A stretch of DNA of 64,000 bases, taken from assembly GCF_041886205.1 (NCBI RefSeq), contig NZ_CP169029.1. One strand, 5' to 3'. This stretch comes from Escherichia coli. Its GTDB lineage: Bacteria > Pseudomonadota > Gammaproteobacteria > Enterobacterales > Enterobacteriaceae. The first letter of the stretch is position 1; every line of letters begins with the position of its first letter. Made by a program: the position numbers and the translations under genes. This document shows, piece by piece, positions 48,432 through 55,901 of the stretch. The notes under the pieces were generated by a model that was not told the origin of the DNA, did not search any database, and saw only the letters and a program-made list of their open reading frames with translations.

Positions 48432-49520
48432 TTAGCCGTGACGGCGTTCGAACTCAACCATGAAGTCTGTCAGCGCTTTAACGCCTTCCAGCGGCATGGC
48501 GTTATAAATAGACGCGCGCATTCCGCCGACCACACGGTGACCTTTCAGTGCATGAAGGCCAGCAGCAAAAGACTCTTCAAGGAACAATTTGTCAAGCGCA
48601 CTGTCCGCCAACTGGAACGGCACGTTCATCCGCGAACGGTTAGCTTTCGCCACGTCATTGCGGTAGAAATCGCTGTTATCAATCACCCCATATAGCAGTT
48701 CTGCTTTTTGCTGATTGATTTTATCCATTTCAGCTACACCGCCGTTCGCTTTCAGCCATTTAAAGACCAGACCAGATAGATACCAGGCAAATGTCGGCGG
48801 CGTGTTAAACATGGAGCCGTTATCGTTGAGGATGGAATAATCCAGAATCGACGGACACGCGATATTCGCTTTGCCCAGCAAATCTTCACGAACGATGACG
48901 ATTGTCAGGCCAGCCGGGCCGATATTTTTCTGCGCGCCAGCGTAAATTACACCATAACGGCTGACGTCAATCGGACGGGAAAGAATGGTTGAAGAGAAGT
49001 CGGCGGCGACCACCACATCTTTGCCGAAGTCTGGCGTCTCGTCGATGGCGATACCGTCGATGGTTTCATTCGGGCAGTAATGCATATAAGCCGCATTATC
49101 AGAGAGTTGCCATTCACGCATTGGCTTAACCGCGCGCAGACCATCAACAGTCACTTTGGCGTCAAAGACATTAGGCGTGCAGTATTTTTTCGCTTCTTTA
49201 ATGGCACTTGCCGCCCAGTAACCGGCATCAACATAATCTGCGGTGGTTTTATCACCGAGAATATTCAGCGGTACCGCAGCAAACTGACCGCGACCACCGC
49301 CATGGCAGAATAATACCTTGTAGTTGGAGGGGACATTAAGAAGATCGCGAAAATCCTTCTCGGCTTCCTCTGCAACCTGAATGAACTCTTTGCCACGGTG
49401 ACTCACTTCCATCACCGACGTACCAAGACCGTTCCAGTCGCGCAGTTCCTGTTGAGCCTGTTTAAGCACCTCTGCCGGTAGCATTGCCGGACCAGAACTA
49501 AAATTGAAGATTTGAGCCAT
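48432..49520 (-). CDS. serC: Phosphoserine aminotransferase
   Basis: 362-aa [36 protein letters not shown]... Confidence 0.97.
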
Positions 49521-49718
49521 TTCCCCTCACCACGTTGCGTTGCTATTAACCCGCGGTCAATCGATTGCGACCACAGGTAATACATTATTCCTGTGGCTAT
49601 CGGTTTTATCATTCAGTGACACACATCGCAATGAGTAAAACCGTTGAGGGCAAAAATGTGGCTTGCATCACACAAAAGAATCTCTCGGATTATTAGCAAA
49701 AAGCCGATGTTTTTACTG

Positions 49719-50411
49719 TCAGGTCACTCGTTTTGCCCGACTTGCCTTCGTCCATTCTGGATTTGCACAGCGCGGACATAATTGTTTTTCCCCCGCTTTC
49801 ATATGAATGATTTCACTACAACGAATACAGGCATAGTCCGCCGACTCCGGCACCACTTTGTAACGCTGCGTACAATCACTGGGTAAAATAAGTAAACCCG
49901 GTTTCACCTTGTCATCTTCAAAGAAATAGACACTGATTTGCCCGTTGGTTTCGAGAATCGCCAGACGTACCTGCCCCAGCTGCTCCACGCCACGCAATCG
50001 TAGCTCCATAAAGAACTCAAATTCCGTCATGTTGGAGTTATTGAGTTTCGACCAGGCCAGCTCGCCATCTTCAATAATAACAACCGGCTTACCTTCCAGT
50101 AGATCTTCCAGTTTTTCACTGTGCGCCATCAACCACATTACCAGGCGGTATAACAACGCCAGAGTGATAAAGACGATAAGTACCGGCACCATCGGCACAT
50201 CATCATAAAACGCCACATCTCCCGCCGCTGAACCCAGCGTGAGAATGATTAACACTTCAAACAGCGACATCTGTCGCACACCGCGTCTTCCGGTCATTTT
50301 GAGGAACAAAAAAACCAGTACAAAGGTATAAAGACTACGTAGTGCAACTTCGCCAAGGAAATCAAAAGGCACTTTATCAAATGCCATACGGTGGAGATCG
50401 AACGCCTTCAT
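49719..50411 (-). CDS. ycaP: DUF421-family inner-membrane protein YcaP
   Basis: 230-aa ORF with N-terminal TM helices; divergent from ycaO. Confidence 0.8.
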   Translation of the reverse strand: MKAFDLHRMAFDKVPFDFLGEVALRSLYTFVLVFLFLKMTGRRGVRQMSLFEVLIILTLGSAAGDVAFYDDVPMVPVLIVFITLALLYRLVMWLMAHSEKLEDLLEGKPVVIIEDGELAWSKLNNSNMTEFEFFMELRLRGVEQLGQVRLAILETNGQISVYFFEDDKVKPGLLILPSDCTQRYKVVPESADYACIRCSEIIHMKAGEKQLCPRCANPEWTKASRAKRVT

Positions 50412-50540
50412 TTTTATGCTCTTATCGTGGTTTATCCGCTAAAAGCATAGTCAACAGTTCATCGGCATGGCGGCGGTGATAGCGCCTTTGAGATAAAACC
50501 CGTATTATTGCGCGCTTTCCGTACGACTAAAGTGATTTTC

Positions 50541-52301
50541 ATGACGCAAACATTTATCCCCGGCAAAGATGCCGCTCTGGAAGATTCCATCGCTCGCTTC
50601 CAGCAAAAACTTTCAGACCTCGGCTTTCAGATTGAAGAGGCCTCCTGGCTGAATCCTGTGCCTAACGTCTGGTCTGTACATATTCGCGACAAAGAGTGCG
50701 CACTGTGTTTTACCAACGGTAAAGGCGCAACCAAAAAAGCGGCGCTGGCTTCTGCACTTGGTGAATATTTCGAGCGTCTCTCAACCAACTACTTTTTTGC
50801 TGATTTCTGGCTGGGCGAAACCATCGCCAACGGTCCGTTCGTGCATTATCCCAACGAAAAATGGTTCCCACTGACCGAAAATGACGATGTGCCAGAAGGA
50901 CTACTCGATGACCGTCTGCGCGCGTTTTATGATCCGGAGAATGAACTGACCGGCAGCATGCTGATTGACCTACAATCCGGTAACGAAGATCGTGGTATTT
51001 GCGGCCTGCCGTTTACGCGTCAGTCCGACAATCAGACCGTTTATATTCCGATGAATATCATTGGTAACCTGTACGTCTCCAACGGTATGTCCGCAGGTAA
51101 TACCCGCAACGAAGCACGCGTTCAGGGATTGTCTGAAGTTTTCGAACGCTACGTGAAAAACCGCATTATTGCTGAAAGCATCAGCCTGCCAGAGATCCCG
51201 GCAGACGTGCTGGCGCGTTACCCAGCGGTGGTTGAAGCGATCGAAACACTGGAAGCAGAAGGTTTCCCGATCTTCGCATATGATGGTTCCCTTGGCGGCC
51301 AGTATCCGGTGATTTGCGTGGTACTGTTTAATCCTGCAAACGGCACCTGCTTTGCCTCTTTCGGTGCGCATCCTGATTTTGGCGTAGCACTGGAACGTAC
51401 CGTGACCGAGCTGCTGCAAGGTCGTGGCCTGAAAGATTTGGATGTGTTTACTCCGCCAACCTTCGATGATGAAGAAGTCGCTGAACATACCAACCTCGAA
51501 ACGCACTTTATCGATTCCAGCGGTTTAATCTCCTGGGACCTGTTCAAGCAGGATGCCGATTATCCGTTTGTGGACTGGAATTTCTCCGGCACCACGGAAG
51601 AAGAGTTTGCTACGCTGATGGCTATCTTCAACAAAGAAGATAAAGAAGTTTATATTGCCGATTACGATCATCTGGGCGTTTATGCTTGCCGTATTATCGT
51701 GCCTGGCATGTCCGATATTTATCCGGCTGAAGATCTGTGGCTCGCGAATAACAGTATGGGCAGCCATTTACGTGAAACGGTTCTTTCGCTACCAGGCAGC
51801 GAGTGGGAAAAAGAAGATTACCTGAACCTCATCGAGCAACTGGATGAAGAAGGTTTTGATGACTTTACCCGCGTGCGTGAGCTGTTGGGTCTGGCGACCG
51901 GGTCGGATAACGGTTGGTACACCCTGCGTATCGGTGAATTAAAAGCCATGCTGGCGCTGGCTGGTGGCGATCTGGAACAGGCTCTGGTCTGGACCGAATG
52001 GACGATGGAGTTTAACTCATCGGTATTCAGCCCGGAACGCGCCAACTATTATCGCTGCCTGCAAACGTTGTTATTACTGGCGCAGGAAGAAGATCGCCAG
52101 CCGCTGCAATATCTGAATGCGTTTGTTCGCATGTACGGCGCAGATGCCGTGGAAGCCGCCAGTGCGGCAATGAGCGGCGAAGCGGCGTTTTATGGCTTGC
52201 AACCAGTAGATAGCGATCTGCACGCGTTTGCTGCACATCAGTCGTTGTTGAAGGCCTACGAAAAGCTGCAGCGCGCCAAAGCAGCATTCTGGGCAAAATA
52301 A
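50541..52301 (+). CDS. ycaO: YcaO-domain protein (ATP-dependent; linked to RimO-dependent beta-methylthiolation of ribosomal protein S12)
   Basis: ORF 50508..52301; start at ATG 50541 (MTQTFIPGKDAALEDSIARFQQKL), 586 aa. Confidence 0.9.
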   Translation: MTQTFIPGKDAALEDSIARFQQKLSDLGFQIEEASWLNPVPNVWSVHIRDKECALCFTNGKGATKKAALASALGEYFERLSTNYFFADFWLGETIANGPFVHYPNEKWFPLTENDDVPEGLLDDRLRAFYDPENELTGSMLIDLQSGNEDRGICGLPFTRQSDNQTVYIPMNIIGNLYVSNGMSAGNTRNEARVQGLSEVFERYVKNRIIAESISLPEIPADVLARYPAVVEAIETLEAEGFPIFAYDGSLGGQYPVICVVLFNPANGTCFASFGAHPDFGVALERTVTELLQGRGLKDLDVFTPPTFDDEEVAEHTNLETHFIDSSGLISWDLFKQDADYPFVDWNFSGTTEEEFATLMAIFNKEDKEVYIADYDHLGVYACRIIVPGMSDIYPAEDLWLANNSMGSHLRETVLSLPGSEWEKEDYLNLIEQLDEEGFDDFTRVRELLGLATGSDNGWYTLRIGELKAMLALAGGDLEQALVWTEWTMEFNSSVFSPERANYYRCLQTLLLLAQEEDRQPLQYLNAFVRMYGADAVEAASAAMSGEAAFYGLQPVDSDLHAFAAHQSLLKAYEKLQRAKAAFWAK

Positions 52302-52632
52302 AATCAAATAGCCTACGCAATGTAGGCTTAATGATTAGTCTGAGTTATATTACGGGGCGTTTTTTTAATGCCCCGCTTTACATATATTTGCATTAATAAA
52401 ATAATTGTAATTATAAAGTTAAATATCGGTAATTTATATTTAATAAATACGATCTATATTGTTACTTTATTCGCCTGATGCTCCCTTTTAATTAACTGTT
52501 TTAGCGGAGGATGCGGAAAAAATTCAACTCATTTGTTAATTTTTAAAATTTATTTTTATTTGGATAATCAAATATTTACTCCGTAATTGCATAAAAACCA
52601 TGCGAGTTACGGGCCTATAAGCCAGGCGAGAT

Positions 52633-52646
52633 ATGATCTATATCAA
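52633..52646. promoter_or_regulatory. FNR-binding site of an anaerobic focA-pflB promoter
   Basis: atGATctatATCAA matches TTGAT-N4-ATCAA with one mismatch; TAGTAT -10-like hexamer about 23-28 bp downstream (52669-52674), consistent with a class II FNR promoter. Confidence 0.5.
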
Positions 52647-52706
52647 TTTCTCATCTATAATGCTTTGTTAGTATCTCGTCGCCGACTTAATAAAGAGAGA
52701 GTTAGT

Positions 52707-53564
52707 GTGAAAGCTGACAACCCTTTTGATCTTTTACTTCCTGCTGCAATGGCCAAAGTGGCCGAAGAGGCGGGTGTCTATAAAGCAACGAAACATCCGC
52801 TTAAGACTTTCTATCTGGCGATTACCGCCGGTGTTTTCATCTCAATCGCATTCGTCTTCTATATCACAGCAACCACTGGCACAGGCACAATGCCCTTCGG
52901 CATGGCAAAACTGGTTGGCGGCATTTGCTTCTCTCTGGGGCTGATTCTTTGTGTTGTCTGCGGAGCCGATCTCTTTACTTCCACAGTGTTGATTGTTGTT
53001 GCTAAGGCGAGTGGGCGCATCACCTGGGGTCAGTTGGCTAAAAACTGGCTAAATGTCTATTTTGGCAACCTGGTCGGCGCACTGCTGTTTGTACTTTTAA
53101 TGTGGCTTTCCGGCGAGTATATGACCGCAAATGGTCAATGGGGACTAAACGTCCTACAAACCGCCGACCACAAAGTGCACCATACTTTTATTGAGGCCGT
53201 CTGTCTTGGTATCCTGGCAAACCTGATGGTATGTCTGGCAGTATGGATGAGTTATTCTGGCCGCAGCCTGATGGACAAAGCGTTCATTATGGTGCTGCCG
53301 GTCGCGATGTTTGTTGCCAGCGGTTTTGAGCACAGTATCGCAAACATGTTTATGATCCCGATGGGTATTGTAATCCGCGACTTCGCATCTCCGGAATTCT
53401 GGACCGCTGTCGGTTCTGCACCGGAAAATTTTTCTCACCTGACCGTGATGAACTTCATCACTGATAACCTGATCCCGGTTACGATCGGTAATATTATCGG
53501 CGGTGGTTTGTTGGTTGGGTTGACATACTGGGTCATTTACCTGCGTGAAAACGATCACCATTAA
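52707..53564 (+). CDS. focA: Formate channel FocA
   Basis: ORF 52587..53564; translation assigned to GTG 52707 (VKADNPFDLLLPAAMAKVAEEAG...) preceded by GAGAGAG; 285 aa; FNT-family polytopic protein. Confidence 0.9.
   Translation: MKADNPFDLLLPAAMAKVAEEAGVYKATKHPLKTFYLAITAGVFISIAFVFYITATTGTGTMPFGMAKLVGGICFSLGLILCVVCGADLFTSTVLIVVAKASGRITWGQLAKNWLNVYFGNLVGALLFVLLMWLSGEYMTANGQWGLNVLQTADHKVHHTFIEAVCLGILANLMVCLAVWMSYSGRSLMDKAFIMVLPVAMFVASGFEHSIANMFMIPMGIVIRDFASPEFWTAVGSAPENFSHLTVMNFITDNLIPVTIGNIIGGGLLVGLTYWVIYLRENDHH

Positions 53565-53618: not shown

Positions 53619-55901
<2,283 letters not shown>

Follow-up and report, generated by a model that had tools for sequence, protein, structure and literature searches.

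Escherichia coli ycaO encodes a YcaO-domain protein, and an earlier sequence-only reading of its locus had presented it as an orphan, divergently arranged with ycaP, possibly coupled to ycaP or rimO and lacking any adjacent precursor peptide or partner protein. This raises the question of which substrate the enzyme acts on and whether anything encoded beside it takes part. The locus was examined within a stretch of 64,000 nucleotides (the window; NCBI RefSeq assembly GCF_041886205.1, contig NZ_CP169029.1), in which the neighbours of ycaO are serC, ycaP, focA, pflB and pflA. The features discussed below are listed by window position.

49719-50411, minus strand: ycaP, encoding a 230-aa inner-membrane protein of the DUF421/YetF type (ORF list of the window, Pfam and PDB 3C6F)
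50412-50540, no strand: divergent ycaP/ycaO spacer of exactly 129 bp, without a conserved small ORF or Rfam match
50496-50527, plus strand: conserved block AAAACCCGTATTATTGCGCGCTTTCCGTACGA, near-invariant in 16 Enterobacteriaceae, putative ycaO promoter/discriminator
50541-52301, plus strand: ycaO (ATG at 50541, stop codon ending at 52301), encoding a 586-aa ATP-dependent amide-activating enzyme (Pfam, NCBIfam and PDB identity)
52310-52328, plus strand: hairpin 1, 7-bp stem and 5-nt loop, lineage-specific
52353-52375, plus strand: hairpin 2, predicted stem of a conserved ycaO intrinsic terminator (fold and covariation)
52377-52405, plus strand: sigma-70 promoter-like site TTTACA-17-AATAAT (promoter scan and SELEX list)

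Coordinates, Pfam and RefSeq all agreed with the gene identities and the divergent layout over 129 bp that had been proposed earlier. Gene models and spacer lengths matched the RefSeq annotation of an identical strain and of K-12, in which the spacers flanking ycaO measure 129 and 405 bp as they do here. The focA control region expected after ycaO was likewise recovered in sequence and annotation, the GTG start of focA at 52707 lying on its 3′ side. Identity of the DNA with E. coli chromosomes was 100%, and with the locus recovered from 5421 of 5426 complete genomes the region belongs to the E. coli core genome. PADLOC, consulted for defence-system membership, gave no matches for YcaO or YcaP, and an Rfam scan of 49400-52900 with E values up to 1 yielded no structured RNA match. 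The explanation that we consider, as a whole, very probable is that ycaO and ycaP are two independent, unrelated core genes, and that ycaO of the window is the gene of the published enzyme forming the thioamide at Met82 of ribosomal protein uL16.

The encoded YcaO protein is identical at 584 of 586 positions to the crystallised K-12 protein (PDB 4Q84/4Q85/4Q86). In comparison to K-12 YcaO (b0905, UniProt P75838), gene, length, domains, flanking genes and spacer lengths are the same, and the sole differences are two conservative substitutions (D376 here, E in K-12; V414 here, I in K-12). The Pfam YcaO model (PF02624) was matched over profile positions 1-325 of 325 with 254.3 bits (cutoff 25.7), and TIGR00702 gave 573.9 bits (cutoff 75.65). 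The YcaO domain covers aa 59-391 (nt 50715-51713) and is followed by the C-terminal TPR-like dimerisation domain YcaO_C (PF18381; aa 407-581, nt 51759-52283; 218.5 bits). The equivalog model NF040716 ('YcaO_for_S12') was matched over profile positions 1-570 of 571 with 915.6 bits, well above its cutoff of 700. As nucleotide-binding residues of EcYcaO we take those that we attribute to Dunbar et al. 2014, namely S71, E75, E78, E199, E202, R203, R286 and E290; all of them are found in the window protein, and none varies among 12 aligned sequences whose identity goes down to 43%. The full-length PF02624 match and these conserved residues bear out the ATP-dependent YcaO domain of the sequence-only reading, and the need for ATP is published for the K-12 protein. 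The E202A variant of EcYcaO impairs thioamidation (PMC13063428). YcaO is strongly acidic, with 92 Asp and Glu versus 42 Lys and Arg residues and a pI of 4.37 (4.33-4.89 across 80 orthologues), matching the signature by which the 2026 uL16 paper (PMC13063428) marks out an acidic group in its sequence-similarity network. An N-terminal extension starting from TTG 50508 was rejected: conservation in this stretch is at the nucleotide level, an in-frame TGA lies just upstream in some genera, the frame is shifted in Pseudocitrobacter, and the crystallised protein begins at the annotated ATG.

By genetics and in vitro assays, Rice et al. (Biochemistry 2026, PMC13063428) established that EcYcaO thioamidates Met82 of uL16. 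The thioamide was demonstrated in the E. coli strains BW25113 and BL21 and was lost upon deletion of ycaO, and co-expression led to complete modification. The reaction in vitro required full-length uL16, ATP, MgCl2 and Na2S, sulfide being a non-physiological donor; short peptides were rejected and the tertiary structure of uL16 was needed. A Kd of 9.8 nM was reported for YcaO and uL16 and an AlphaFold3 ipTM of 0.8-0.87, Klebsiella and Pseudomonas orthologues likewise thioamidate uL16, and the E. coli genome encodes no TfuA (all PMC13063428). With a published substrate the orphan framing fails: since uL16 is modified in trans, no local precursor is expected, and the missing neighbour is explained by action on a ribosomal protein. 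In the proposed course of events, YcaO acts on full-length folded uL16, whose gene rplP lies elsewhere. The large acidic surface of YcaO would bind uL16 (pI about 4.4 versus 11.2) and a uL16 loop would enter the active site. A sulfide equivalent would then attack the Met82 backbone carbonyl, followed by phosphorylation from ATP and elimination of phosphate, leaving a thioamide beside the peptidyl-transferase centre. The ycaO deletion strain grows normally in LB and M9, so that any physiological role of this thioamide is putative. The genes and the EcYcaO structure were already known and substrate and chemistry were published in March 2026; catalytic function, substrate and the requirement for ATP and sulfide are experimentally published for EcYcaO, and the identity of the window gene, the lack of cis partners and the terminator covariation were computed here.

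The earlier reading had pointed to both flanks of ycaO as places to look for small ORFs. All ORFs of at least 20 aa, and then of at least 8 aa, were collected from both spacers and projected on alignments of 15 other enterobacterial loci, across which no small ORF of at least 8 aa adjoining ycaO was conserved. The three E. coli small ORFs of at least 8 aa in 50412-50540 were intact in at most three of the 15 loci. The sole conserved candidate was a 12-aa ORF at 52633-52671, about 330 bp downstream of ycaO, which was intact in 15/15 loci because it lies on the near-invariant focA promoter region; an FNR-type box and a TATAAT -10, as in the focA-pfl promoter literature, are recognisable in this stretch. 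A hidden precursor peptide beside ycaO was rejected on these grounds, which is one half of what the earlier reading had named as its refutation. The K-12 annotation contains no additional feature or precursor in either ycaO spacer. Using tblastn and all-against-all neighbour clustering, no recurrent partner gene beside ycaO was detected in 80 loci, which showed housekeeping synteny only, and representatives 67%, 53% and 51% identical to YcaO lay in unrelated gene contexts. Genes for E1-like/RRE, dehydrogenase or TfuA proteins were absent near ycaO in the window, the K-12 annotation and the 80 loci. The claim that no precursor or partner adjoins ycaO was thus upheld by small-ORF alignments, neighbour clustering and K-12 annotation, and the 2026 paper likewise reports no adjacent precursor for EcYcaO (PMC13063428).

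These searches bear directly on the idea of ycaO as the centre of a cryptic RiPP cluster (thiopeptide or azoline) with an unannotated precursor in a flanking spacer. For E. coli C91, antiSMASH and BAGEL4 predict a low-similarity 'thiopeptide BGC', and ycaO was then deleted in this strain, resulting in lower siderophore output. The passages on this cluster do not say that it is centred on ycaO, and the siderophore data are described there by the authors themselves as indirect expression phenotypes (PMC12837419). ORFs of 21-36 aa do exist in the E. coli ycaO-focA spacer, but they are intact in only 0-1 of 15 other genera, the TOMM cyclodehydratase model TIGR03604 gave YcaO 43.3 bits where 219.25 are required, and none of the partner genes named above is present. 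We regard a RiPP cluster as extremely improbable, and 'thiopeptide cluster' calls made at the ycaO locus by genome mining as false positives. Unlikely, too, is a main role of YcaO as accessory factor for RimO in the methylthiolation of S12 Asp88, even though RefSeq, NCBIfam and PDB all use the name S12 methylthiotransferase accessory factor. Tagged S12 co-purified YcaO, and S12 modification fell from 99% to 84% in the ycaO deletion (both recounted in PMC13063428). This effect is weak, RimO needs no helper to modify an S12 peptide in vitro, and deletion of rimO abolishes the mark (PMC13063428). AlphaFold3 ipTM values of 0.31 for YcaO-uS12 and 0.16 for YcaO-RimO compare with 0.8-0.87 for uL16, on which direct ATP-dependent catalysis has been reconstituted (PMC13063428). 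Moreover, rimO was unlinked to ycaO in 80/80 loci. The suggested coupling to rimO did not hold up, and the database name is misleading for YcaO.

A functional link to ycaP deserves closer attention, as this gene adjoins ycaO in the window. YcaP contains the DUF421/YetF C-terminal domain (PF04239; aa 97-170; 61.8 bits, cutoff 23.6) and matches PDB 3C6F YetF with E = 4.7e-6; YetF_N (PF20730) scored 23.3 bits, under its cutoff of 26.5, and hydropathy placed hydrophobic stretches within about aa 18-98. Its C-terminus carries a CxxC-13-CxxC zinc ribbon (aa 195-215, nt 49767-49829) whose four cysteines are invariant in nine orthologues of 55-88% identity and which weakly matches the RpoP zinc ribbon (E = 0.003). 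This predicted ribbon is a minor new observation. If ycaO and ycaP were a functional divergent pair co-regulated via the 129-bp region, YcaP might serve as a partner, for instance in sulfur delivery or enzyme tethering. In 16 Enterobacteriaceae loci the two genes are indeed adjacent and divergent with a spacer of 127-139 bp, the published work leaves room for a sulfur donor of EcYcaO, YcaP offers four invariant cysteines, and the Klebsiella and Pseudomonas enzymes were tested in an E. coli host, which has ycaP (PMC13063428). Nevertheless, of 80 genomes carrying a YcaO of 54-99% identity, only 21 have ycaP beside ycaO. It was not found at the ycaO locus of Citrobacter youngae, Cedecea, Erwiniaceae, Pectobacteriaceae, Yersinia, Aeromonas, Pasteurellaceae, Shewanella and others, and loci without it have serC or an asparaginase gene in its place. 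For YcaO-YcaP an AlphaFold3 ipTM of 0.11 has been published, thioamidation proceeds in vitro without YcaP (PMC13063428), the cysteine spacing is that of a zinc ribbon and not of a persulfide-carrier motif, and ycaP is a listed YciT ChIP-exo target without ycaO. A functional pair is accordingly very unlikely, and we give equally little credence to YcaP as a lineage-specific accessory, expressed from the shared 129-bp region, that affects how or where sulfur reaches uL16; were it true, it would bear on the sulfur donor of ribosomal thioamidation. The coupling of ycaO and ycaP considered earlier found no support in the 21/80 adjacency or the low ipTM. In the preferred explanation of two independent genes, the interval between serC and ycaO varies in content, and ycaP would simply be what fills it in some Enterobacterales. 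The physiological source of sulfur and what the thioamide does beside the peptidyl-transferase centre are matters beyond what the locus encodes.

How ycaO may be expressed is indicated by its flanks. The block AAAACCCGTATTATTGCGCGCTTTCCGTACGA contains a -10-like TATTAT (50503-50508) followed by the G+C-rich TGCGCGC. A TATNAT motif recurs 31-46 nt upstream of the ycaO start in most Enterobacterales, Aeromonas and many Pasteurellaceae, and at least five of the seven nucleotides after it are G or C in 49 of 62 loci. In the -35 region the consensus is poorly matched, and the site escaped a simple promoter scan. From the conservation we infer that the block is probably the ycaO promoter, its -10 lying some 32 nt before the ATG and followed by a G+C-rich discriminator; the conserved putative -10 with its GC-rich discriminator is a further minor new observation. 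A leader RNA structure in the block was also considered and rejected; its 4-bp CGTA/TACG pairing is not kept in Erwinia and others, and the promoter reading is preferred for this reason. Under carbon limitation, ycaO groups with ribosomal-protein genes in a growth-rate-dependent set (PMC6390033), which suggests growth-rate coupling of ycaO.

The two hairpins noticed earlier after ycaO are real, with slight corrections to their limits: hairpin 1 is shifted by one base (52310-52328 instead of 52309-52327) and hairpin 2 ends at 52375 instead of 52376. Hairpin 1, with the stem AGCCTAC/GTAGGCT, folds with -12.8 kcal/mol including short flanking pairs (z = -5.1), and hairpin 2 with -15.7 kcal/mol (z = -3.9). 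For each of them 0/200 shuffles were as stable, so both exceed chance. Only Escherichia and Citrobacter preserve both arms of hairpin 1; elsewhere GTAGGC alone is retained and pairs differently. A reading of hairpin 1 as a REP-like repeat was rejected because the window contains a single copy. Hairpin 2 was recovered in 16 genera with seven consensus pairs, three of which show compensatory double changes, and a run of 5-8 T follows it in almost all relatives, while the E. coli tail, CTTTACATATATTT, is degenerate. Since neither hairpin is followed by an uninterrupted T run in E. coli, a simple terminator scan missed both on the plus strand. Fold and covariation identify hairpin 2 as a predicted, conserved intrinsic terminator of ycaO. 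Within its tail begins TTTACA-17-AATAAT, a sigma-70 scan match of 10/12 with which the focA-pflB control region opens on its upstream side; a genomic SELEX list of constitutive RpoD promoters includes these hexamers for the focA/ycaO spacer (PMC3946193). Thus arranged, ycaO would be transcribed alone from its own conserved promoter, ending at hairpin 2 before the focA-pflB promoters.

Among known systems, YcaP resembles Bacillus subtilis YetF/YdfS and the '2Duf' DUF421 spore inner-membrane proteins (PDB 3C6F) in its YetF C-terminal domain and a putative N-terminal transmembrane region. It differs from them in that E. coli is non-sporulating, the N-terminal model match lies below cutoff and an extra, invariant C-terminal zinc ribbon is predicted. 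For YcaO, the OsmC-YcaO fusions (TIGR03549) are close relatives: EcYcaO scored 680.7 bits over profile positions 148-722, the whole YcaO and YcaO_C region, but lacks the ~147-residue N-terminal OsmC domain and remains below the 900-bit equivalog cutoff. The 53% identical representative mentioned above (P0243, 729 aa) is of this fused type. The RiPP azoline cyclodehydratases (TOMM SagD/BalhD/McbD/LynD, TIGR03604) have the YcaO fold and amide O-phosphorylation in common with EcYcaO. These enzymes depend on a precursor peptide encoded beside them together with an E1-like/RRE partner or fusion, both lacking at the ycaO locus, and EcYcaO, unlike them, rejects short peptides and depends on the tertiary structure of uL16 (PMC13063428). 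The methanogen enzymes acting on a glycine of McrA (TIGR03266; Methanosarcina/Methanocaldococcus MJ1094, PDB 6PE3) usually work with TfuA, whereas no TfuA or ThiS-like gene lies near ycaO or in its genome (PMC13063428). EcYcaO reached 38.8 bits with TIGR03266 against a cutoff of 365, and it carries an extra C-terminal TPR-like domain of 150-175 residues and a very acidic surface. What it has in common with the McrA-type enzymes is the ATP-binding core, seen in a weak sequence match to PDB 6PE3 (E = 5e-4), and the ATP-dependent exchange of backbone oxygen for sulfur on a folded protein.

The genes and sequence elements of the locus are arranged as follows.

49719-50411, minus strand: ycaP, DUF421/YetF membrane protein, 230 aa
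Between ycaP and ycaO: divergent spacer of exactly 129 bp
50541-52301, plus strand: ycaO, YcaO-domain enzyme, 586 aa
52310-52328: hairpin 1
52353-52375: hairpin 2
52377-52405: promoter scan match, TTTACA-17-AATAAT
52633-52671: 12-aa ORF, MIYINFSSIMLC
52707: GTG start of focA, 405 bp after ycaO

The window is E. coli chromosome, and several complete genomes match its 3.1-kb part 49600-52700 at 100% identity. Of 5426 complete E. coli genomes, 5421 contain 80% or more of this part. In the RefSeq annotations of an identical strain and K-12 MG1655, the genes follow in the order aroA, serC, ycaP, ycaO, focA, pflB, pflA, with no annotated RNA genes, small proteins or repeats in the ycaP-ycaO and ycaO-focA spacers. 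Further downstream, a 750-aa ORF (53640-55892, minus strand) runs antisense to nearly the whole of pflB, and shorter antisense ORFs recur across genomes in pflB and focA; these look like codon-composition by-products of highly expressed genes, not real genes. The ORFs, the spacer and the RefSeq order bore out the gene calls and coordinates of the sequence-only reading, including its divergent layout of ycaP and ycaO over 129 bp. Its anatomy therefore stood, whereas the framing of YcaO as an orphan is outdated and the links it suggested are outdated or unsupported.

The two hairpins reported 3′ of ycaO are real, as both fold far beyond shuffled sequence (z = -5.1 for hairpin 1 and -3.9 for hairpin 2, with 0 of 200 shuffles as stable for either). 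Hairpin 2 is kept across 16 enterobacterial genera, with compensatory changes in three of seven consensus pairs, such as G-C to A-U in Superficieibacter, and is followed by a T run in nearly all 16. In most of the more distant loci, the ycaO stop is soon followed by a G+C-rich hairpin of unrelated sequence that has a T run. Hairpin 2 is thus the predicted intrinsic terminator of ycaO, in agreement with the statement in the literature that transcription of focA-pfl is independent of ycaO. A simple terminator scan misses it because the T tail is degenerate in E. coli (CTTTACATATATTT). The TTTACA-17-AATAAT match immediately after hairpin 2 begins where this tail would be expected and where relatives have a plain T run; a genomic SELEX study lists the same hexamers as a constitutive sigma-70 (RpoD) promoter for focA-pflB, located in the focA/ycaO spacer (PMC3946193). 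In E. coli, a -35 element seems to have replaced the terminator tail. Both arms of hairpin 1, which is single-copy within the window, are kept only in Escherichia and Citrobacter.

Upstream of ycaO, the 45 bp before the ATG, AAAACCCGTAT(T/C/G)ATTGCGCGCTTTCCGTACGA, show much stronger conservation than the remainder of the spacer. Within them a block at 50496-50527, nearly invariant across Enterobacteriaceae, carries a TATNAT hexamer followed by TGCGCGC. The hexamer recurs 31-46 nt upstream of the ycaO start in most Enterobacterales, Aeromonas and many Pasteurellaceae, and at least five of the seven bases after it are G or C in 49 of 62 loci. This conservation suggests a putative sigma-70 -10 element with a G+C-rich discriminator, as is characteristic of promoters under stringent control; the -35 region is poor. 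Such a stringent-type promoter would fit the report that ycaO is among the growth-rate-dependent genes and falls with the ribosomal-protein genes (PMC6390033). A TTG start at 50508, where the frame is open to 50540 (33 nt, an 11-aa extension), was considered for ycaO and rejected, as an in-frame TGA just precedes the TTG in some genera, the frame is shifted in one, and the crystallised protein has 586 aa.

The surroundings of ycaO were searched for a precursor or partner gene in 80 genomic loci whose encoded YcaO is 54-99% identical to that of the window, spanning Enterobacterales, Aeromonas, Pasteurellaceae, Orbales, Vibrionaceae, Shewanella, Pseudoalteromonas, Methylophaga and Bacteriovoracaceae. 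Every E. coli ORF of at least 8 aa in both spacers was followed through alignments to 15 further enterobacterial loci, one from a second E. coli strain and 14 from other taxa. No conserved small ORF was found beside ycaO: the ORFs adjoining it are intact in at most one to three of the 15 loci, solely in E. coli or Citrobacter. The only ORF intact in all 15 is the 12-aa one, which lies shortly before focA, in DNA that hardly varies and presumably contains an FNR-type box and a TATAAT -10 of the focA-pfl promoter. Its few substitutions are a mixture of synonymous and non-synonymous changes, and in view of the nearly invariant promoter DNA its preservation is probably due to constraint at the DNA level. 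In a clustering of all ORFs of at least 70 aa within 4 kb of ycaO, the top clusters were housekeeping synteny only: FocA (48 of 80 loci), PflB (47), SerC (45), AroA (40), PflA (39), YcaP and Cmk (21 each) and an AnsB-like asparaginase (10). In the non-enterobacterial orders, the only families common to three lineage groups are PflB, which is joined by FocA in two of the groups, and a family of three members whose N-terminus resembles a signal peptide; no recurrent sulfur-transfer gene was among the shared families. More distant YcaO representatives are flanked by RNase G and a methyltransferase (67% identity), a ClC channel and YkuD (53%) or unannotated genes (51%). The statement that ycaO has no adjacent precursor or partner gene accordingly holds.

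YcaP matches the YetF/DUF421 C-terminal domain (61.8 bits) and PDB 3C6F; its match to the N-terminal transmembrane model is under the cutoff. A C-terminal CxxC-13-CxxC motif (aa 195-215; nt 49767-49829, minus strand), whose four Cys never vary among orthologues of 55% identity or more, weakly resembles RpoP zinc-ribbon models (E = 0.003) and lies outside both Pfam matches (aa 22-92 and 97-170); it therefore looks like an appended zinc ribbon. In core Enterobacteriaceae ycaP lies between serC and ycaO, and Hafnia, Rahnella and one Serratia also have it at this locus, in Hafnia and that Serratia at 1.2 kb from ycaO. Among the 80 loci it is missing from one Citrobacter, Cedecea, Mangrovibacter, Yersinia, Photorhabdus, Edwardsiella and Budvicia, from all sampled Erwiniaceae and Pectobacteriaceae, and from everything more distant. 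In loci lacking ycaP, ycaO either directly adjoins serC or has an L-asparaginase-like gene in the divergent position. The latter, of asparaginase-II type with a signal peptide, occurs in Hafnia, Yersinia, Serratia silvae, Photorhabdus, Edwardsiella and Budvicia (fetched loci L037, 4810-5883; L040, 4815-5852; also L035, L042 and L044-L049), so that the slot upstream of ycaO is variable. Citrobacter youngae (L010, 3090-3534) has only a 446-bp gap where relatives have ycaP, which looks like a loss, and the ycaP copy of an Enterobacteriaceae MAG (L032, 2248-2937) contains an internal stop codon.

A functional divergent pair of ycaO and ycaP is improbable, being contradicted by this distribution, with ycaP adjacent in only 21 loci, and by a published AlphaFold3 interaction screen with E. 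coli YcaO as bait (YcaP ipTM = 0.11). The literature mentions ycaP as a co-transduction marker for focA and among ChIP-exo targets of YciT, never together with ycaO. Because of the patchy distribution, the low ipTM and the lack of joint mention, we treat the pairing as incidental. The puzzle of a YcaO without precursor or partner has been resolved elsewhere. Watson et al. (2020) saw a backbone thioamide at uL16 Met82 by cryo-EM at 2 Å and put YcaO forward as candidate enzyme (PMC7550191). Rice et al. (2026) picked out uL16 by a proteome-wide AlphaFold3 screen and found that ribosomes of a ycaO deletion lack the thioamide, that modification is complete on co-expression and impaired by ATP-site variants, and that purified MBP-YcaO forms the thioamide on full-length uL16 only with ATP, MgCl2 and Na2S (PMC13063428). 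YcaO binds uL16 with a Kd of 9.8 nM but neither binds nor modifies peptides of 11-21 residues, and the orthologues from Klebsiella and Pseudomonas each modify the uL16 of their own organism. The substrate is a ribosomal protein whose gene lies elsewhere, and it is recognised in its folded form. The same study reports no small ORF near ycaO, the absence of TfuA from E. coli and an unknown sulfur donor; nothing encoded at the ycaO locus bears on this donor or on the role of the thioamide.

The role implied by the name "S12 methylthiotransferase accessory factor", a name whose weakness is explained in PMC13063428, would at most be a minor or indirect effect: S12 modification drops no further than from 99% to 84% in a ycaO mutant, RimO alone suffices in vitro, and YcaO reaches ipTM values of 0.31 with uS12 and 0.16 with RimO. 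A cryptic RiPP cluster, a reading that derives from genome mining and from indirect phenotypes in siderophore output (PMC12837419), lacks each of the defining features that were tested. Besides Pfam YcaO (254 bits) and YcaO_C (218 bits), the protein (pI 4.37) matches the equivalog NF040716 with 915.6 bits against a cutoff of 700, whereas it stays far below the cutoffs of the RiPP cyclodehydratase (43 vs 219 bits) and McrA-thioamidation (39 vs 365 bits) models, and below that of the OsmC-YcaO fusion (681 vs 900 bits) because the N-terminal OsmC part is missing. Its nucleotide-binding residues are intact and do not vary across 12 aligned sequences, which reach down to 43% identity. With 584 of 586 residues identical to the crystallised K-12 protein (PDB 4Q84/4Q85/4Q86; D376 for E, V414 for I), this YcaO is an ordinary gene product of already known function, whose enzymatic role is published.
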